A DNA stretch of 64,000 nucleotides from a virus. Lineage: Duplodnaviria > Caudoviricetes. The stretch covers positions 8,227 through 72,226 of IMG/VR virus record IMGVR_UViG_3300029305_011788; one strand, given 5' to 3'. The stretch's first letter is position 1; every line of letters starts with the position of its first letter. This document shows positions 7,907 through 64,000 of the stretch, in pieces. Below the pieces are notes generated by a model. It was not told the DNA's origin. It saw only the letters and a program-made list of their open reading frames with translations, and searched no databases. The translations under genes were made by a program, and so were the position numbers.

Positions 7907-9168
7907 CAGCCGTTACCGCCAGTATTGCCGCCAGTCGTACCGCCGCTCGTGGTGTTGGACTTCGTGCCAGCCATCTTCAGCACCTTCACGGACTCGGGAA
8001 GGATAAGACGACCGTCCACACGCTGAGTAGTGAGGAAACCGACCTGATCGGTACGGGCATACAGCTCGTTCAGACGGCGGAAGGTACGGTTCTGTCTGTC
8101 AGCCACCCAGTAATTCTTCATGTCACCGAAGAGGAGAACACGCTCACCCTTGGCGATACCGGGCATGAAGGAAGATGTGCGGATGGGGCGACCGAGGAGC
8201 GTGTCGGGCTTTGCGATATCAAGGGACGGCTTCCAGAGGTAGTTGTCGTTCTTGTCCTTCAGCTTCATGAGCTGAAGCAGGATGGTCTCATTGCAGACGA
8301 ACTGTGCATTTCTGCGGTAGGGAGACTTGAGGCTGTAGTAGAGGTCGAACACCTCGTCAAAGGTGATCGCCGTCTGGGATGCCGCAGTAACACCAAGCTC
8401 TGCACCGCCTGTCTCATCGAGGATACCGAGAGGCTTTTTGTCGCCGTCACCGGTGAAAAACGCACGCTCCTCAGCATTGCCCATTGCAACACCGAAACGT
8501 GCAGCGATATAGCTTGCGAGGTCGAATGCGGAGTCGTGCAGAAGCTCGTTGCTGATCTTGATCATCGTACCGAGCTTGTATGCAGAGAGCGTGGTCTGAC
8601 CGAATCTGGTGTCAGTCTCCGGGATCTCCTCGCCCTCGTCGATCCACTGTGCCTCCATCGTGTCGTTGGCGATAGGGATCTTGCGGGTACCGGAGTTGGT
8701 CTTGATGACCGTAGCCATCTGACGGAAGATGTTGTTCTCCTCCAGCGCCTGGATCAGTCTGCGCTCGAACTCATCCGGCACAGTGTAGCCGCCCTCGGTG
8801 TCCTCACCGACAGAGAGTGCGTTGCGGACTGCAAGCTGGTCACCCTTGTTGCGGATCATATCCCAGAATGCGCCCTTGTACTCGTCGGTTGCGGTCGGGT
8901 TAGTGGGCGGCGTGTTCTTTGCGCCGGGAGCGTTGGTGACGGGACGGGAGGTCGGTGCGGACAGTGCGGCATCGAGGGCTGCCTGCTGTTCCAGACGCTC
9001 GATCTCTGCGCCGAGAGCCTGCACCTCGGATGCCATCTTGTTGTACTGCTCGACTGCGGATGCCTCAACGAGACCGTTCTCACCACGGTGCTTTTCAAGA
9101 AATGCCTTAGTCTGCTCCCACAGGGTATTGCGCTTTGTGCGAAGTTCCATGATCTTGCTCATATTCAT
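7906..9168 (-). CDS. Major capsid protein, HK97 fold
   Basis: Coiled-coil delta domain, EGGYTVPDEF, LLGRP, LLFGD, RVDG motifs. Confidence 0.95.
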   Translation of the reverse strand: MNMSKIMELRTKRNTLWEQTKAFLEKHRGENGLVEASAVEQYNKMASEVQALGAEIERLEQQAALDAALSAPTSRPVTNAPGAKNTPPTNPTATDEYKGAFWDMIRNKGDQLAVRNALSVGEDTEGGYTVPDEFERRLIQALEENNIFRQMATVIKTNSGTRKIPIANDTMEAQWIDEGEEIPETDTRFGQTTLSAYKLGTMIKISNELLHDSAFDLASYIAARFGVAMGNAEERAFFTGDGDKKPLGILDETGGAELGVTAASQTAITFDEVFDLYYSLKSPYRRNAQFVCNETILLQLMKLKDKNDNYLWKPSLDIAKPDTLLGRPIRTSSFMPGIAKGERVLLFGDMKNYWVADRQNRTFRRLNELYARTDQVGFLTTQRVDGRLILPESVKVLKMAGTKSNTTSGGTTGGNTGGNG

Positions 9169-56866: not shown

Positions 56867-57862
56867 GTGAACACAATGCAAAAACCACTGACATGTGTTG
56901 AAATATGCGCCGGAGCAGGTGGACAGGCGCTCGGCTTGGCAATGGCCGGATTTGTCCATGTAGCTTTGGTTGAATATGAAGAAGAGTATTGCCAAACACT
57001 GAGGGACAATCGTCCTGAATGGAATGTGATATGTGCAGATGTACATGATTTTGATGGACGCCCATACAAGGGTGTAGACCTTTTAGCAGGCGGTGTTCCA
57101 TGTCCCCCATTTTCGGTAGCAGGAAAGCAGCTTGGTGCTGATGATGAGAGGGATCTGTTTCCAGAAGCGATTCGGCTAATTGGAGAGATACGGCCCCGCG
57201 CTGTTATGCTTGAAAATGTGCGCGGTTTTCTCAGTCCTGAATTTGACGAATACCGAGAGCGTATATTCAATGAGATCCGTGCATTGGGATATGATCCGCA
57301 GATCAAGTTGCTTAATGCATCTGATTTTGGTGTACCGCAGCTTCGTCCAAGAATCGTCATAATTGCGATTCGTAACGATCAAAACAGATCCTTTTCTTAT
57401 CCGGAAACATTCACAGAGACCGCACCTACTGTCGGTGACACATTATATGATCTAATGAAGGCAAATGGGTGGAGCGGTGCAAAAAAATGGGCAAAAGGTG
57501 CAAACCGTATCGCCCCCACGCTTGTAGGCGGCTCCAAGAAACACGGCGGTCCGGACTTAGGTCCCACAAGAGCTAGAAAAGCGTGGGCTGAGCTTGGTGT
57601 AGATGGCTGTGGTATTGCCAATGAAGCACCTGCAGAGGATTTTGAAGGCATGCCTCGTCTCACTAGCAGAATGATGGCAAGACTTCAAGGATTCCCGGAT
57701 ACATGGACATTCGGAAAGAAAAAAACATGCGCTTGCCGTATGATTGGTAATGCTTTCCCGCCACCCGTTGCGCGAGCAGTAGGAATTAAACTTAAGGAGT
57801 GTTTACAAAATGAACGCACTGATCTCGGATGCCAGATTCAGCTTTCACAAGAAGCTATTTGA
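56867..57862 (+). CDS. C5 methyltransferase of type II R-M system (NgoMIV-like)
   Basis: EICAGAGGQALG, GGVPCPPFS, ENVRG, QLRPR, RLQGFPD, IGNAFPPPVA. Confidence 0.92.
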   Translation: MNTMQKPLTCVEICAGAGGQALGLAMAGFVHVALVEYEEEYCQTLRDNRPEWNVICADVHDFDGRPYKGVDLLAGGVPCPPFSVAGKQLGADDERDLFPEAIRLIGEIRPRAVMLENVRGFLSPEFDEYRERIFNEIRALGYDPQIKLLNASDFGVPQLRPRIVIIAIRNDQNRSFSYPETFTETAPTVGDTLYDLMKANGWSGAKKWAKGANRIAPTLVGGSKKHGGPDLGPTRARKAWAELGVDGCGIANEAPAEDFEGMPRLTSRMMARLQGFPDTWTFGKKKTCACRMIGNAFPPPVARAVGIKLKECLQNERTDLGCQIQLSQEAI

Positions 57863-58685
57863 ATCAAACACACTGGCACTAACGACGGCAGGTGTCGCAT
57901 CGAATGCAGATACCAGCAGCAAAGCTTCCAAGGCTATCTCAGGTCGAATCATAGAAATCCTCGTTGAGGAGCAGGGACATTCTGCAAATGCAGTTGATAA
58001 GATCTCAGGTCAGACGCTCGGAAAGCTGTTTGAAACGCTTACTATGGAATTTCTGCGAGACACCTTTCCGAGACTGCAAAACCTCCGTCCTGGTACATGG
58101 ACGATTCTTCAGCTTGGAAACAATAATAAGCTCAAGACTAGCGATTTCGCACAGTATGAACATCTTGCATATTTGAGTACGATGACATCTCAGAATGCAC
58201 AGCTTGCTGCGGCTCTTGGAAATGATTATCTCGTTGCTCCTGATGTTGTAATCTATCGGGATACATATGAGGATGATGAAATTAACACAAATGAGCTTGT
58301 TGTAAATGATGATGTTTGCCGTATGACAGATATTCGTAAGTCAAATGGCGGAAAACCAATTCTCCATGCGAGTGTCTCTGCAAAGTTTACGATGAGAAGT
58401 GATCGTGCGCAAAACAGTCGTACTGAGGCACTGAATCTTATCAGAAATCGAAAGGGACATCTCCCACATATTGTAGTGGTGACTGCTGAACCAATGCCGA
58501 ATCGAATTGCTTCTCTTGCATTGGGGACTGGTGACATCGACTGTGTATATCACTTTGCTCTCTACGAGCTAATCCGAGCTGTTAAGGAAGTCGGCTCTGA
58601 AGATGCTGTTGAAACGCTCGAAACATTGGTACAGGGTAAACGGCTAAAAGATATCTCTGATCTTCCACTTGATTTGACAGTATAA
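57810..58685 (+). CDS. NgoMIV-family restriction endonuclease (GCCGGC predicted)
   Basis: LHASVSAKFTMRSDRAQNSRTEALNLIRNRKGHLPHIVVVTAEP...GTGDIDCVYH closely resembles NgoMIV. Confidence 0.88.
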   Translation: MNALISDARFSFHKKLFESNTLALTTAGVASNADTSSKASKAISGRIIEILVEEQGHSANAVDKISGQTLGKLFETLTMEFLRDTFPRLQNLRPGTWTILQLGNNNKLKTSDFAQYEHLAYLSTMTSQNAQLAAALGNDYLVAPDVVIYRDTYEDDEINTNELVVNDDVCRMTDIRKSNGGKPILHASVSAKFTMRSDRAQNSRTEALNLIRNRKGHLPHIVVVTAEPMPNRIASLALGTGDIDCVYHFALYELIRAVKEVGSEDAVETLETLVQGKRLKDISDLPLDLTV

Positions 58686-58779
58686 AACAAAAGTGTTCGG
58701 CTCGACTGCTTATGTCATGTAGATATTAGGAGTCTGAGCCGAACACTATATATCAACATATGCTTACGGGGGTGAAGTA

Positions 58780-59004
58780 ATGCCAAAAGAACCCATGATC
58801 GACCGCGATACCTACCGCACCATAAAGAAGATGTCCCGTGAGGAGCTGCAAGCCTTTCTCATACGGCATGCTGACGGTTTAAGAGAGGACGCACCTACGC
58901 TTGACCTGAGAGAGCTGGAGAAAGACATCAAGGGTGTGAAAGGTATCGGAGAGAAGCGTGCAGAGGAGATCATGCAGATCATAGAGCGTCATCTTGGCGT
59001 ATAA
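58780..59004 (+). CDS. 74-aa helix-hairpin-helix protein
   Basis: IKGVKGIGEKRAEEI HhH motif. Confidence 0.7.
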   Translation: MPKEPMIDRDTYRTIKKMSREELQAFLIRHADGLREDAPTLDLRELEKDIKGVKGIGEKRAEEIMQIIERHLGV

Positions 59005-59022
59005 AAGAACGGAGGTGCTGCG

Positions 59023-60372
59023 ATGGCTTCTAACAACAGATATTCTACCGTTGATACGAAAGATCTTGTAGCAACTATAGCCTATCTCATAGGTGTGAAG
59101 AAACACATTGTCGAAAAGTGCTTCGATGCGGAATGCCATGAGCTGTTACAGAAATTGTACAGCTCCCAGGCAGCTACGACAATCCGCTATCTCTGTAAGC
59201 TACGGACAGCTCTGTTCCTGAAATACAAGAAGACCGACTATGAGATGCGGAACAATCTGAAGAACCTGAACACGCTTGAATGGTATGATGCTGATAATAT
59301 CGCTCAGCTCGAAAAATGGGGCATTCCGATCATCAAGGCAAACTATCGCTCCGAAAAATATATGCTCGACCTCAACAAGCTGATCGCCAACCACATAGAC
59401 GATGTGGCAGCACTGATTCCTGACTGGTGCGAGTGGCAGTACATACGGGAGCTGTTCGTCATACCGCATTATAACAACCCTATTGCGCTGAAGCGTGAGT
59501 TTGAAAAATATATGACGAGTAAGATGTACTATCCGTTTCAGGTCTACATATACTGGACGCCCTTTGACTGTGGTTCCATGCTGCTTTCCGACCGGAAGTT
59601 CCTGCAAATCATATACGGCTTACATCATGATTCCTTTGAGGATCCCAGCAAATACCGAGATGCGACCGAGGAGACCAAGAACAACATCTACACGTTCATT
59701 CGCAACAGTATGCGGACGGTCATCGCTGTAGACTGCGAGAATTCTGATGTTTATAAGCTGTATGCCACACTGAGGAACCTCGATCAGAGTGAGCTGGATA
59801 AGATAGAGAAGATCTATCTGTACGATGACCACCACACGACCGTCGGATGGCAATGGCTCGATAAGTTTACCGAAATTCCAGTGGAGCATATCCTGATAGA
59901 CCGTGTCACGGAGCGAAAGAGCCTTGTTGATATTGTCATGACTGCCGGTGTCTGTCAGAGCCACTTTGCAGAGGGCATCGATAGCTTCATCCTCGTGTCC
60001 AGTGACTCGGACTTCTGGGGACTGATCACCTCGCTGCCGAACGCAAGGTTCCTCGTCATGTACGAATACGAGAACTGCGGCAGAGCGATAAAGAACGCTT
60101 TAGAAGAGCATGATATCTATTATTGTGCTATCGATGACTTCTGTTCCGGAAATGTTGACGGCTTCAAACGGGCGGTTCTGCTCGGTCTATTACAGAAATA
60201 TTTGCCGGACATACTGTATCTGAACGGTAAGGAGCTGGTTGAGCATCTTTACGAGGAAGCGTGGATCGAGGGCACGGACAGCGAGAAGAAGCATTTCTAC
60301 GATAGGTATGTCAAAACACTGAGCCTGAAAGTTGACGGTGACGGAAACTTTACGGTTGAGGTGAAGAAATAG
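59023..60372 (+). CDS. Protein with C-terminal NYN (PIN-like) domain
   Basis: AVDCEN, KSLVD, ILVSSDSDF acidic tetrad pattern. Confidence 0.75.
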   Translation: MASNNRYSTVDTKDLVATIAYLIGVKKHIVEKCFDAECHELLQKLYSSQAATTIRYLCKLRTALFLKYKKTDYEMRNNLKNLNTLEWYDADNIAQLEKWGIPIIKANYRSEKYMLDLNKLIANHIDDVAALIPDWCEWQYIRELFVIPHYNNPIALKREFEKYMTSKMYYPFQVYIYWTPFDCGSMLLSDRKFLQIIYGLHHDSFEDPSKYRDATEETKNNIYTFIRNSMRTVIAVDCENSDVYKLYATLRNLDQSELDKIEKIYLYDDHHTTVGWQWLDKFTEIPVEHILIDRVTERKSLVDIVMTAGVCQSHFAEGIDSFILVSSDSDFWGLITSLPNARFLVMYEYENCGRAIKNALEEHDIYYCAIDDFCSGNVDGFKRAVLLGLLQKYLPDILYLNGKELVEHLYEEAWIEGTDSEKKHFYDRYVKTLSLKVDGDGNFTVEVKK

Positions 60373-60386
60373 GAGTGTGATCTGCA

Positions 60387-60881
60387 ATGAAAAGAGTTCT
60401 CGTTAAATCTGTTCACGGAGCATTCGGCTATGTCATGGAGCATTATTATCCTTTTGGCATGGCTGATGAAGCCGCAGAGCAGGGAGCGCTGACCGATACA
60501 TACGCAGTAATCTCGATTCAGGACAGCCACACAGGAGGGTTCGGTGTGAGATTTGCAGAGAACCAGTTCTGCAAAGGCGTTCTTACGCTACTATTCGATG
60601 ATATCGTAACAGAGATAGACGGAGCTGTTCTGTTCGATGATGATATGGCAGAGAGCATTATAGAATTTATCGAACAGCATAAAGCGACGGTTGATACGCT
60701 TTTAGTTCACTGCTATGCCGGACAGTCACGATCCAGAGCAGTCGGAGCATTTGCGGTAGAGATGCTCGGCGGCGACAATAGCAAGTATTTTGAAGAAGGT
60801 AACGCTCCGAATATGTATGTTTATGATGTTCTGGAGAGTGCGTGGGTTAGAAGACAGTTGAGTATGCTGTCGGCGGAATAG
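60387..60881 (+). CDS. Cys-based (PTP/DSP-like) phosphatase
   Basis: VISIQD, LLVHCYAGQSRSRAV, PNMYV. Confidence 0.8.
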   Translation: MKRVLVKSVHGAFGYVMEHYYPFGMADEAAEQGALTDTYAVISIQDSHTGGFGVRFAENQFCKGVLTLLFDDIVTEIDGAVLFDDDMAESIIEFIEQHKATVDTLLVHCYAGQSRSRAVGAFAVEMLGGDNSKYFEEGNAPNMYVYDVLESAWVRRQLSMLSAE

Positions 60882-60882
60882 T

Positions 60883-61045
60883 TGACGGACAATTTACGTT
60901 TTAGCGGTTGTGAGGTATAGTCCCACAGCCGCTTTTTTATTTGACGGTCTTTTTCCGTTTTAGTAGTGGTCGTAGTTGGAGCTGACGGAGAGCGTCCGTT
61001 AGAGCGCCACCATTCACACAGCAATCTGACGGACGATTTCCGTTA
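60883..61045. repeat. Four TGACGG-N7-CCGTT(A/T) palindromic sites
   Basis: Copies start at 60883, 60942, 60983, 61027. Confidence 0.7.
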
Positions 61046-61257
61046 AAAAGCATGCCAACATAACATATCACGTACAATCACCAGATATAAGCGAGGTTTT
61101 GACTCATATATCTGGTGGTTTTATATCTTGATTTCTCCCATAAAACAGAGTAATATATGATACTGATACCCAGAGTATAGGAATGATTGCCCATAAGAAT
61201 GCAAATAGCCACACCGCTGATGTAGCGATATGACTGATGAAATCCAAGATTCTATCA

Positions 61258-61285
61258 CAAAATAACACCTTTTGCGAAGGGTGCA
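61258..61285. repeat. Left 28-bp inverted repeat
   Basis: CAAAATAACACCTTTTGCGAAGGGTGCA, exact reverse complement of 62577-62604. Confidence 0.95.
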
Positions 61286-61322
61286 ACCGTACTTATTAAG
61301 TTTTCAAGTTGCCTCTCTTTTT

Positions 61323-62396
61323 TCAAAAAGCCATCTGAACACGCTTCATATACTCTCTCTTCTGCTCAAAAGAGCTATGAACATAGCGATTCAGCGTGAT
61401 TTCCACAGAACTATGCCCCAGAAGTTCGCTCAGAGCTTTAACATCAAAGCCCAACTTGATGCAATTTGAAGCGAAAATGTGGCGCAGAGCATGAAAATGG
61501 ACTGACGGAAGTTTTGCGTTTTTCAGGATCGTCCGGAAGCGATACTGCATTGCTCTCGGCTCAATCGGCTTTTCGGTGCCGGTCAGGATATATTCGTTGG
61601 GTTTTCCCTTGAATTTAAGCAAAAAGCTCACCATGCACTCCGGAATCGGAATCTGTCTGTGGGAAGATTCGCTTTTCGGATCGGTAATGATGAGCTTTGT
61701 TTTACTAAATGCGCTCGGACACTGGATACGCTGCATGGTCTTGCTGACGGTCAATATCCGTTTTTCGAGGTCGATATCGCGCCACTGAAGCGGACACAGT
61801 TCTCCTATGCGGAGCCCAGTGGTCATGGAAAGGGCTGTTCCCATCGTACTTCGATTCTGGTGAGCCCCAATATACTGCTGCAAGGTCTTCTGTTCTGCTT
61901 CGTCAAGAAGCTGAATCTCAGGAGACTTACTTTTTGGCACCACAATTCCATCCAGAGGATTAAAAATCTGGTAGGTTCTGACAGCATATTTGAAGATAGT
62001 TTTCATCAAAATCACAATATCGGCAATATATCGGGGTGAAAAACCGGCTTTCTGCTTCTCTGCGATGAAGTCATAGATCTGATTAGCAGTTAGGTTACTG
62101 ACAGCCATATCTCCGAAGGCTGGAAGAATATGCTTGTCCGCTTTCATGGTATAGTTTGCAGCCGTGGATTCCTTTACACGGTGAAGGATACTGCGGTGCC
62201 ACTCGGAAAACAGCTCTGTAATGGTCATGGTGCAGTATCCTTGAGGTTTGTTTTGTTGACAAATGGCTTGAACACGCTCGATGCACTGCTCTTTGGTTCG
62301 AGCAAGGACATATAAAAACGCCCTTTTTCCGTCAGGCTTCTTGCCATTTGGCACCCTCGACTCGTACCGACCGTCCTTGCGCAAGTATAGATTCAT
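61323..62396 (-). CDS. Tyrosine recombinase/integrase
   Basis: TGLRIGEL, PKSESSHRQIPI, FHALRH, LLGHSS, NRYVH catalytic set intact. Confidence 0.93.
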   Translation of the reverse strand: MNLYLRKDGRYESRVPNGKKPDGKRAFLYVLARTKEQCIERVQAICQQNKPQGYCTMTITELFSEWHRSILHRVKESTAANYTMKADKHILPAFGDMAVSNLTANQIYDFIAEKQKAGFSPRYIADIVILMKTIFKYAVRTYQIFNPLDGIVVPKSKSPEIQLLDEAEQKTLQQYIGAHQNRSTMGTALSMTTGLRIGELCPLQWRDIDLEKRILTVSKTMQRIQCPSAFSKTKLIITDPKSESSHRQIPIPECMVSFLLKFKGKPNEYILTGTEKPIEPRAMQYRFRTILKNAKLPSVHFHALRHIFASNCIKLGFDVKALSELLGHSSVEITLNRYVHSSFEQKREYMKRVQMAF

Positions 62397-62489
62397 GGTG
62401 ACTCCTCCTTGATTTCTCCTGATTGTTTAATATGAACGGATAATAATCCACAGTATAGAAATTTTCTTTGCAAAATCTCATAAAGTCCC

Positions 62490-62518
62490 TTGATTTTCCT
62501 GTCGATTTATGTTATAAT
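62490..62518 (+). promoter_or_regulatory. Outward-facing sigma-A promoter inside the inverted-repeat segment
   Basis: TTGATT-17-TATAAT with TG extension, 58 nt inside the right repeat. Confidence 0.8.
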
Positions 62519-62576
62519 ACTAACTGTAGATTGATTCGAAGGATTTGTCAAGGATGTGGATAGGCAAGATTGGCTA

Positions 62577-62604
62577 TGCACCCTTCGCAAAAGGTGTTAT
62601 TTTG
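62577..62604. repeat. Right 28-bp inverted repeat
   Basis: TGCACCCTTCGCAAAAGGTGTTATTTTG. Confidence 0.95.
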
Positions 62605-62641
62605 CGAATGTTCTATTTGTTTTTTAGTAGTTTAAATTCGG

Positions 62642-64000
62642 TTGGTGATAAATGTGAATTGGGAAGTTTTTATTGCTTATCATGGTAGCTTTCAAGGTAG
62701 TGGGGGGTCAAAAGAAAAAGCAAGAGAAATATTCGATTTTCTAAAAGGTCAAAATGGCATTAATTGTTACTTTTATCCAGAATGCGAAGAAGGAAAATTT
62801 GGTAACACGCCTAAAGAGGCAGCACACAGTCGTTTATTTCTTTTAGTTGCTAATAGGAACATAGCTGGTAAACTTGATATAACAAGTGGCGAAATCAAGG
62901 AAGGTGAACCAATTTACGAAGAAATAGATGCATTTTATCAAAACAAAATGCATCTAAAAAAAGGGAGTAATGGGATTCTACGTGTATATTGTTACGATGG
63001 TTATAGAGATGCGGATGCTGATTTGCTTTTCCCTGTTGCCACAAAAAATGTTGAACATTTTGATGAGGAAAGGGACGGCGGTGAGGAAAAGACATTTACT
63101 AAACTATTGGAATGGATCACGAATTCTTCTCGTGCCAGAAGTGAACATCTGAATGAAGCAACGGAAAAAGATGCATCATCAGAGATGAGTATACCTCTCA
63201 CTATTCCTAATGTCCATAAGGGTAAAAATAAAATCTTTGAATGGTTTCACTATGTTTTTACACAACATTCTTGGCTTATAATAAGCATTATAGTCCTCTT
63301 GGTATCTATTGTTGTATATTTTAGCGGAATTATCACTCATAAAAATATATATTTTTCAGTAGTGTTTTGGATGCTTTCAGTGATGATTGTAATCATTACT
63401 CGCCTAATGTCATGGACGAAAAAATTTCTCTCAATGGGATTCCGAAAGATATATTGCTCAGCAGTATTCGGCGAGGCTAAACCTCAAAACATTATGAAGA
63501 GTTCAAAAAGAAAAATACGATTCTTAGGGATTGCTTCATCAAAGTGGCTCAGAGATGAAAGTCTCTTTAAAGAAACCTTGATGAGGCTATGTTCAGATGA
63601 TTGTGGAGGAATGGAGTTTTTATTATTAAATCCCAACTCGGAATATGCGAAAAGAATGGATTTGGCCTGTAAATCAGGTGACAGACTAACAAGCGAAAGC
63701 ATTAATCAATGTTTAGATATAATAAGTCGCATTGTGAGAGAAGTTTGTTTAGAAAAGGGGCTAAAAGAAATAAAGGCTTTTTCGGTTAGGCTTTACTCTC
63801 ATTATCCAATTTATCGTATAATTATCTCAGATGATGACAGGATATTCCTTAGTTTCTATAGTGCTGGAATAAGCGGAAACAACAATTACCAAATAAAAGT
63901 CGATGGCCATAAAAGCAATAATGTTTACCCATGTTTAATAAATTATTACAATCAATTATGGAATGATGAATCAACAGTAATCTATAGCATAAAAAAATAA
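62642..64000 (+). CDS. TIR-like domain + two TM helices + DUF5919/PLD-like domain; candidate defence protein
   Basis: VFIAY, INCYF, SRLFLLV, IYEEID TIR pattern; hydrophobic hairpin; KIRFLGI, EFLLLNPNS, RLYSHYP, RIFLSFY; AT-rich. Confidence 0.65.
   Translation: MVINVNWEVFIAYHGSFQGSGGSKEKAREIFDFLKGQNGINCYFYPECEEGKFGNTPKEAAHSRLFLLVANRNIAGKLDITSGEIKEGEPIYEEIDAFYQNKMHLKKGSNGILRVYCYDGYRDADADLLFPVATKNVEHFDEERDGGEEKTFTKLLEWITNSSRARSEHLNEATEKDASSEMSIPLTIPNVHKGKNKIFEWFHYVFTQHSWLIISIIVLLVSIVVYFSGIITHKNIYFSVVFWMLSVMIVIITRLMSWTKKFLSMGFRKIYCSAVFGEAKPQNIMKSSKRKIRFLGIASSKWLRDESLFKETLMRLCSDDCGGMEFLLLNPNSEYAKRMDLACKSGDRLTSESINQCLDIISRIVREVCLEKGLKEIKAFSVRLYSHYPIYRIIISDDDRIFLSFYSAGISGNNNYQIKVDGHKSNNVYPCLINYYNQLWNDESTVIYSIKK

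Follow-up and report, generated by a model that had tools for sequence, protein, structure and literature searches.

A probable self-contained invertible promoter cassette with its own tyrosine recombinase, next to a gene for a TIR-like membrane protein

What does a tyrosine recombinase gene do when it lies alone between two inverted repeats, together with a promoter that points outward into a neighboring gene? This arrangement is found near one end of a 64,000-nucleotide stretch of viral DNA (IMG/VR record IMGVR_UViG_3300029305_011788, positions 8,227 to 72,226; Caudoviricetes), to which we refer as the window. The window is the terminal 64 kb of a 72,226-bp "provirus" record, and its end is also the end of the record, which coincides with the stop codon of a 451-aa gene. 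A first-pass annotation, made from the letters of the window alone, proposed that the locus is a phase-variable ON/OFF switch for that gene. Following up this proposal, we consider it highly probable (roughly 85%) that positions 61255-62607 are a self-contained invertible promoter cassette whose flipping turns expression ON and OFF. The elements on which this reading is built are given below; homologous contigs and loci are referred to by L numbers.

61255..61285, no strand: left inverted-repeat arm (repeat search; search with a 27-nt core; breakpoint of the inversion seen in L109/L110)
62577..62607, no strand: right inverted-repeat arm (same three lines of evidence)
61255-61277: left core site, TCACAAAA-TAACACC-TTTTGCGA, with one mismatch in the outer half-site
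62585-62607: right core site, TCGCAAAA-GGTGTTA-TTTTGCGA, with perfect 8-bp half-sites and the 7-bp spacer of the left arm inverted
61323..62396, minus strand: tyrosine recombinase, 357 aa (the one long open reading frame between the arms; Pfam; family alignment)
62490..62518, plus strand: outward promoter Pout, TTGATT-17-TGTTATAAT (consensus scan; conservation in the family)
62642..64000, plus strand: target gene, 451-452 aa (open reading frame; hydropathy; structural model), which opens a long operon of same-strand genes running on past the window

The repeats had been described as 28 bp long and exact, or 31 bp with one mismatch. The repeat search returned the same pair (31 nt, one mismatch, 97% complementary, 28 nt exact) as the only one of its kind in the window. 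The arms are separated by 1291 nt, giving a cassette of about 1.35 kb (61255-62607). The 27-nt core of the arm occurs at two places only in the 64-kb window, with none expected from 100 shuffles, and no exact copy of an arm was found elsewhere in scans of viral and genome collections. Within each arm lies a core site with the layout TCGCAAAA-N7-TTTTGCGA, that is, 8 bp, 7 bp and 8 bp with an asymmetric spacer; this pattern has two matches in the window, where 0.02 are expected. Read from the outside into the cassette, the spacer of either arm is TAACACC. Two inverted binding elements flanking an asymmetric crossover spacer are the classical layout of a tyrosine-recombinase core site. The first-pass annotation had recognized an imperfect palindrome with an asymmetric centre in each arm. 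The asymmetric centre holds, but the palindrome had been placed in the register CACC...GGTG, and the correct one is TCGCAAAA/TTTTGCGA; the CACC...GGTG pairing is an accident of the spacer in this copy and is not conserved, for example in the related cassette of L008.

Between the arms, searches for open reading frames, Pfam domains and promoters agree with the earlier description of one intact tyrosine recombinase and one outward promoter. The 357-aa protein matches PF00589 (Phage_integrase) with an E-value of 9.6e-27 and 94.3 bits, against a cut-off of 27.1, as well as Phage_int_SAM_3, and is composed of an N-terminal arm-type region, a SAM-like core-binding domain and a catalytic domain. The R..H-x-x-R..H/W..Y residues of the catalytic domain (R196, H302, R305, H328 and Y338) are invariant in a family alignment with 21 homologues. 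The nearest solved structure is Tn1549 Int (6EMZ family; E 5e-16). The protein scores 26.6 bits with the NCBIfam model "tyrosine-type DNA invertase" for FimB/FimE (NF007370), which has a cut-off of 221, and 37.7 bits with the integron-integrase model TIGR02249, which has a cut-off of 265. Two other identities were considered and rejected: an integron, given this low score and a second site that is an inverted copy beyond the recombinase gene instead of an attC site, and a serine invertase of the Hin/Gin/Cin type, given that the enzyme belongs to PF00589 and that PF00239 has no match in the record. The resident enzyme presumably catalyses the flip between the arms.

The outward promoter, TTGATT-17-TATAAT with a TG extension (TTGATT-17-TGnTATAAT), ends 58 nt from the right arm and points at the 451-aa gene. 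Candidate starts of this gene at 62642, 62645 and 62654 place its beginning 35-47 nt past the 31-nt arm, or 38 nt past the 28-nt arm, as the first-pass annotation had it.

Has the cassette been inverted? The evidence on orientation comes from public assemblies, not from reads of one clone. Using the exact 451-aa protein as a query, we found L109, a 124-kb ENA scaffold (5 samples), and L110, a Logan contig, in both of which the recombinase gene is co-directional with the 451-aa gene (the OFF orientation). BLAST alignments of L109/L110 to the window are colinear over 58790-61285 (91.7% identity) and over 62577-64000 (99.5%), and reversed over 61255-62607 (93.6%), and all three alignments meet inside the arms. 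The OFF-left junction had been predicted from the window before L109 was found, and it is present in L109 letter for letter. The A/G difference of the outer half-site remains with the left flank in L109, as expected for exchange within the site. Additionally, contig L111, from another sample of the study that gave L109, begins only 27 nt within the cassette and has an ON-type right junction. Over 11,424 nt it matches L109 with 100.000% identity, and therefore one strain shows both junction types. Look-ups by the exact recombinase and by its left-hand neighbor retrieved more than 20 contigs, all in the ON orientation of the window, which L019-L027 show. An assembly artefact appears unlikely from these contigs, because each orientation is represented by several independent assemblies made with different assemblers. 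Short Logan contigs were rejected as signs of mixed orientation: repeat length alone accounts for the break of L113, whose end is a 30-nt (k-1) terminal inverted repeat, and the breaks of L114, 21-27 nt past the repeat, are uninformative.

The same behavior is seen in relatives. Homologues of the recombinase are abundant (7364 at E <= 0.001 among 8000 scored), and a scan of species-representative genomes gave at least 577 confirmed stretches with such homologues; among the matches listed, most are from Ruminococcus, Ruminiclostridium and other Oscillospiraceae or Clostridia metagenome-assembled genomes of rumen and gut, with some isolates. The first-pass annotation had suggested looking around such homologues for flanking inverted repeats and neighboring genes. 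A scripted inverted-repeat search yielded 75 cassettes that share the architecture, with enzymes 50-94% identical to that of the window. In all 75 the arms are 20-35 nt long and lie at the same distances from the gene, and both arms read, from outside to inside, a TCGCAAAA-like element, N7 and a TTTTGCGA-like element. The 7-bp spacer is equal in both arms of 72 of the cassettes and differs by one base in the other 3, and 50 distinct spacers occur among the 75. Strand exchange in the spacer requires this combination of identity within a cassette and diversity from one cassette to another, and private spacers would keep the copies of one genome from recombining with each other. In most of the cassettes the interval from the start codon to the promoter-side arm holds an outward promoter, in very many cases a perfect TTGACA-17-TGnTATAAT, and matches to inward promoters are weak.

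Five cases of flips among these relatives emerged when the sequences flanking the arms, and then whole loci, were compared with each other. The interior of L088 is 100% identical over 1368 bp to those of L090 and L092, while the flanks, 98.4-99.9% identical, are swapped and reverse-complemented with breakpoints at the arms. Further flip pairs are L055/L056 and L064/L070 (contigs, each pair from one metagenome-assembled genome), L004/L085 and L071/L074. The claim that the segment is invertible is thus supported by the reversed interior of L109/L110, by the identity of L111 and L109, and by the flips in relatives.

Could the cassette instead be primarily a mobile element, transposon-like, with terminal inverted repeats and a tyrosine transposase, and the inversions a by-product? 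Some observations do point this way. The inverted-repeat-bounded unit is found at unrelated loci: between the window and L008, where the enzyme is 94% identical, homology extends over 61254-62608, exactly from arm to arm, and the flanks are unrelated, that of L008 being a protein kinase / VWA / PP2C / TerY_C operon. Five genomes that were searched whole hold 3-8 recombinase genes of this family each, including Ruminococcus albus 8 (5 copies), Ruminococcus sp. YRD2003 (4) and Ruminococcaceae bacterium FB2012 (6), and tandem pairs of cassettes occur in L008 (600-6142) and L046 (3164-6140). However, copies within one genome differ in sequence and spacer and are therefore not products of recent transposition. 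Tyrosine recombinases acting on inverted core sites bring about inversion, not excision, and flips with conserved flanks are seen directly. Recurrence at unrelated loci with target duplications had been named beforehand as the sign of a transposon; here the sites are inverted, there is one copy only in the 72-kb record, and no target-site duplication is evident at the arm ends, so that the marks of a transposon or insertion sequence were not found (empty sites were not searched for systematically). We regard the mobile-element explanation as very unlikely.

Some side observations concern the members of this family. The L008 cassettes lie directly beside a Type I restriction-modification hsdS shufflon with its own 310-aa recombinase, giving three recombinases in 5 kb. 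The arms of L044 (4676-4856/6088-6268) form a 181-nt inverted repeat with 3 mismatches, and those of L064 (4697-4762/6103-6168) a 66-nt inverted repeat with a duplicated core; these long repeats suggest that arms can grow by duplication or gene conversion. At the L009-L018 loci, whose recombinase (P0035) is 81% identical to that of the window, many assemblies break 145-256 nt upstream of the start codon and the upstream sequences diverge at one point (L016 vs L009); no TCGCAAAA-type upstream site was seen in these contigs, which break upstream of the gene. The downstream flank of P0035 is homologous to the left flank of the window as far as 60883. The P0035 loci could represent a degenerate or differently organised switch.

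Two further elements of the window have to be considered before a mechanism is drawn.

62523..62551, minus strand: candidate recombinase promoter, TTGACA-17-TACAGT (consensus match only), back-to-back with Pout
61207..61235, minus strand: hairpin with a T-rich tail just beyond the left arm, reading away from the cassette (folding; conservation)

Sites similar to the former (TTGACA-17), at an equal distance, are present in L008, L028, L030 and L031. The latter lies in a 66-nt stretch (61195-61260) with a folding energy of -19.7 kcal/mol (z -3.15), and the hairpin is kept with its T-run in L028, L031 and L009. It likely terminates the recombinase mRNA in the state of the window and Pout transcripts in the flipped state.

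We propose that the resident recombinase would bind and pair the two inverted 23-bp core sites and exchange strands in the 7-bp spacer; because the core sites are in inverted orientation, this exchange would invert the 1.29-kb interior. The state of the window would be ON: Pout, with a transcript start near 62525, would read across the right site into the TIR-like/2TM/PLD-like gene (2TM, two transmembrane helices) and its operon, and the recombinase mRNA would end at the left-flank hairpin. In the flipped state, which would be OFF or low, Pout would face the left flank and meet the conserved terminator hairpin, and the 3' end of the recombinase gene, with weak transcription, would alone face the operon. 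We infer that expression follows orientation, that switching is frequent within the population, and that the operon encodes a defence or toxic system for which bet-hedging is an advantage.

Several observations weigh against this reading. The window strain itself was seen in the ON orientation only, in about 24 contigs, and the interior and left flank of the OFF copies are 6-8% divergent from those of the window, so that the flip of the window strain is deduced from a sister strain. The exact OFF junction was absent from the scanned JGI metagenome contigs and present in ENA and Logan assemblies. The transcribed core site folds as a hairpin of -9.5 kcal/mol followed by a T-rich tract, which could attenuate Pout and may damp expression in the proposed ON state. 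Finally, many relatives have the target gene downstream of the recombinase; these can be read either as OFF states or as a sign that read-through is the real driver.

The last point leads to an explanation in which the cassette does flip, but transcription of the recombinase gene reading through the site at its 3' side drives the operon, so that the window would show the OFF or low state, or the two orientations would give two levels of expression. Outward genes within 300 nt are found at the recombinase 3' side of about 49 cassettes vs the promoter side of about 26. The sole clear terminator of the locus is located beyond the left arm and does not move with a flip, so flipped-state recombinase transcripts could enter the operon. 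Against this, no other non-coding feature of the family is as well conserved as the outward promoter, which often has a perfect extended -10 consensus, and inward promoters are weak; such conservation is hard to explain if Pout has no target. In addition, where a helix-turn-helix (HTH) gene accompanies the cassette, Pout faces either that gene or the target. Read-through as the driver is therefore unlikely in our judgment, and we retain Pout as the probable source of operon expression.

The HTH gene just mentioned accompanies 13-14 cassettes: a small outward XRE/HTH_3 gene (~75 aa) located 100-210 nt outside one arm, which has a promoter of its own (TTGACA-17-TATAAT) and the palindrome TTACTCA-N5-TGAGTAA. 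Because this gene occurs to either side of the recombinase, a flip would alternate Pout between target and regulator in this subfamily, which comprises L032, L033, L037, L038, L040, L042, L055-L058, L061, L062 and L082 (module 100-450 nt outside the arm). Two features of the left flank of the window belong in this context.

61073..61180, no strand: conserved non-coding block with hairpin (comparison with relatives)
60944..61043, no strand: three clustered ACGG-N7-CCGT palindromes (motif count)

No HTH open reading frame is present in the block at 61073-61180 of the window, and comparison with relatives identifies it as a decayed upstream remnant of the XRE/HTH regulator module. A 60-aa open reading frame at 61104-61286 (minus strand) was judged spurious: it has no family match, it overlaps the conserved terminator and the operator remnant, and conservation here is at the level of nucleotides, not codons. 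The ACGG-N7-CCGT motif occurs 7 times in the window against 0.67 expected, with one copy inside the recombinase gene (61747), and it is also found after the HTH gene in relatives; the palindromes are possibly accessory or arm-type binding sites.

Does the cassette belong to the virus at all? The recombinase is the sole PF00589 or PF00239 match in the provirus record and lies at its edge, and its nearest solved relative is the integrase of a conjugative transposon, all of which would suit an integrase of the 72-kb prophage, with the repeats unrelated to its function. However, L109, which has neither phage genes nor a restriction-modification pair, and whose homology to the window starts at 58790, holds the HhH-NYN-phosphatase / cassette / TIR-operon locus beside WYL and dockerin genes, and therefore the cassette belongs to a host island beside the prophage. 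The integrase of a prophage or of an integrative and conjugative element acts on att sites that lie in direct repeat at the two ends of what it moves, whereas the present sites are in inverted orientation and have the recombinase gene alone between them. The architecture of the family is also found in dozens of non-phage contexts. We therefore give hardly any weight to the prophage-integrase explanation. The status of the recombinase as the only integrase of the record may explain how far the provirus call reaches, and, judging from these comparisons, the right-hand provirus boundary of the record (window 56867-64000) was probably set too far out. The trio at window 58780-60881, encoding an HhH protein (74 aa), an NYN-domain protein (449 aa) and a Cys-phosphatase-like protein (164 aa; weak DSPc match), travels with the switch locus in prophage-bearing and prophage-free strains.

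What, then, would be switched? The 451-aa protein has no match in Pfam, PADLOC or NCBIfam, a profile search of PDB sequences returned noise only, and only five full-length homologues were found. Its N-terminal 160-190 residues recur in fusions to BspA-type leucine-rich repeat (LRR) or DUF5919 domains, and hydropathy indicates two transmembrane helices at about residues 210-258. An AlphaFold2 model built from 16 sequences has a mean pLDDT (predicted local distance difference test) of 72.7 and a pTM (predicted template modelling score) of 0.41. Foldseek matches the C-terminal domain of this model to PLD-like folds (FAM83/DUF1669, Nuc, NucT, Zucchini and vaccinia F13; E ~2e-5 to 1e-3) and the N-terminal domain to the TIR domains of SARM1 and TIR-1 (TM 0.58-0.70 by target; E 2e-3 to 4e-3). 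One glutamate, E93, is shared by all of 16 homologues and is a candidate for the catalytic Glu of TIR domains. Of the first-pass label "TIR-2TM", the two helices stand, and the TIR part holds only at the level of fold, from a model of modest confidence and with no Pfam match. "TIR-2TM-PLD-like" is a reasonable description of the modelled fold, not demonstrated family membership.

Past the window, as read in L109 (11381-21356), the operon continues on one strand, tightly spaced, with genes for proteins of 443, 673, 731 and 1151 aa and then of at least 678 aa. The 443-aa protein is without a family match, the 673-aa protein is a fusion of an ARMT1-like phosphatase and a methyltransferase, and the 1151-aa protein is a Tubulin_2 protein (PF13809). 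PADLOC recognized no system in this operon, except for a weak mad2-like match to the methyltransferase of the 673-aa protein. Together, the TIR-like gene and its operon are a candidate for an undescribed defence or toxin system. Across the family, the outward-pointing genes within 300 nt encode ResIII/SNF2 helicases, BrxA, YpsA-SLOG, Wzz, a sugar transferase, BspA-type LRR and VWA proteins, and HTH regulators. What phase variation usually controls is functions in defence, exopolysaccharide and the cell surface.

How does such a cassette compare with known switches? The first-pass annotation had likened it to the H-segment of Salmonella (hixL-hixR), and the likeness stands for the layout: there, as here, the recombinase gene and an outward promoter lie inside a segment bounded by short inverted sites, and Hin has been cited as an example of a recombinase inside its invertible segment (PMC5903667). 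In the H-segment, which underlies flagellar phase variation, the promoter expresses the adjacent operon in only one of the two orientations. It does not extend to the enzyme class. Hin belongs to the serine recombinases and requires a Fis-bound enhancer, whereas here a tyrosine recombinase is paired with 8-7-8 core sites, and belongs to a multi-copy family with a private spacer per copy. The fimS switch with FimB/FimE, C. difficile RecV and Bacteroides Tsr likewise combine a tyrosine recombinase, a promoter segment and short inverted repeats, and by inversion of that segment they switch surface or defence genes ON and OFF. However, their segments are ~150-350 bp long, with a recombinase that is encoded outside and is in some cases distant and shared by many switches; here each switch of 1.35 kb has one enzyme inside it. 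FimB/E-type enzymes are also shorter (~200 aa) than the 357-aa Int-like enzyme. Integrases of the Tn916/Tn1549 type share with it the SAM-like core-binding and catalytic domains and a short N-terminal region, but they excise and integrate between directly oriented ends, in contrast to the inverted sites that here enclose the enzyme gene only. The "epigenetic invertons" of Type I restriction-modification hsdS genes (PMC7672463) are similar in being found in Firmicutes, with a local tyrosine recombinase, inverted repeats and control of defence, but they reshuffle coding sequence with repeats inside genes, whereas here a promoter flips. The cassette therefore has the layout of the Salmonella H segment and the chemistry of fimS, RecV and Tsr, and is a member of neither group.

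Our full-text literature searches found no published description of such cassettes in these bacteria, which does not prove its absence. Promoter-inversion phase variation is well studied in Bacteroides, enterobacteria and C. difficile; for Ruminococcus and other Oscillospiraceae, fibre degraders of the rumen and gut, there is to our knowledge hardly any description of it. Common inverton finders generally accept only repeats that are separated by much less than 1.3 kb, and they probably miss these cassettes because the repeats are ~1.3 kb apart. We lean, somewhat beyond an even chance, towards the view that the cassettes form an undescribed and very widespread family of portable, mutually orthogonal switches in Ruminococcus/Oscillospiraceae that place defence, exopolysaccharide and surface loci under independent phase variation.

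In the delimitation of proviruses, recombinases of this kind may be mistaken for prophage integrases, the present record being a case in point, and their natural spacer variants would offer synthetic biology a ready set of potentially orthogonal one-gene memory switches. For the bacteria themselves, if this view is true, the combination of an enzyme, a promoter and a private crossover sequence would explain how one genome can make several independent ON/OFF decisions, including decisions over candidate anti-phage or toxic operons such as that of the TIR-like membrane protein, and it would influence what metagenomes are taken to say about phage susceptibility and surface phenotypes.

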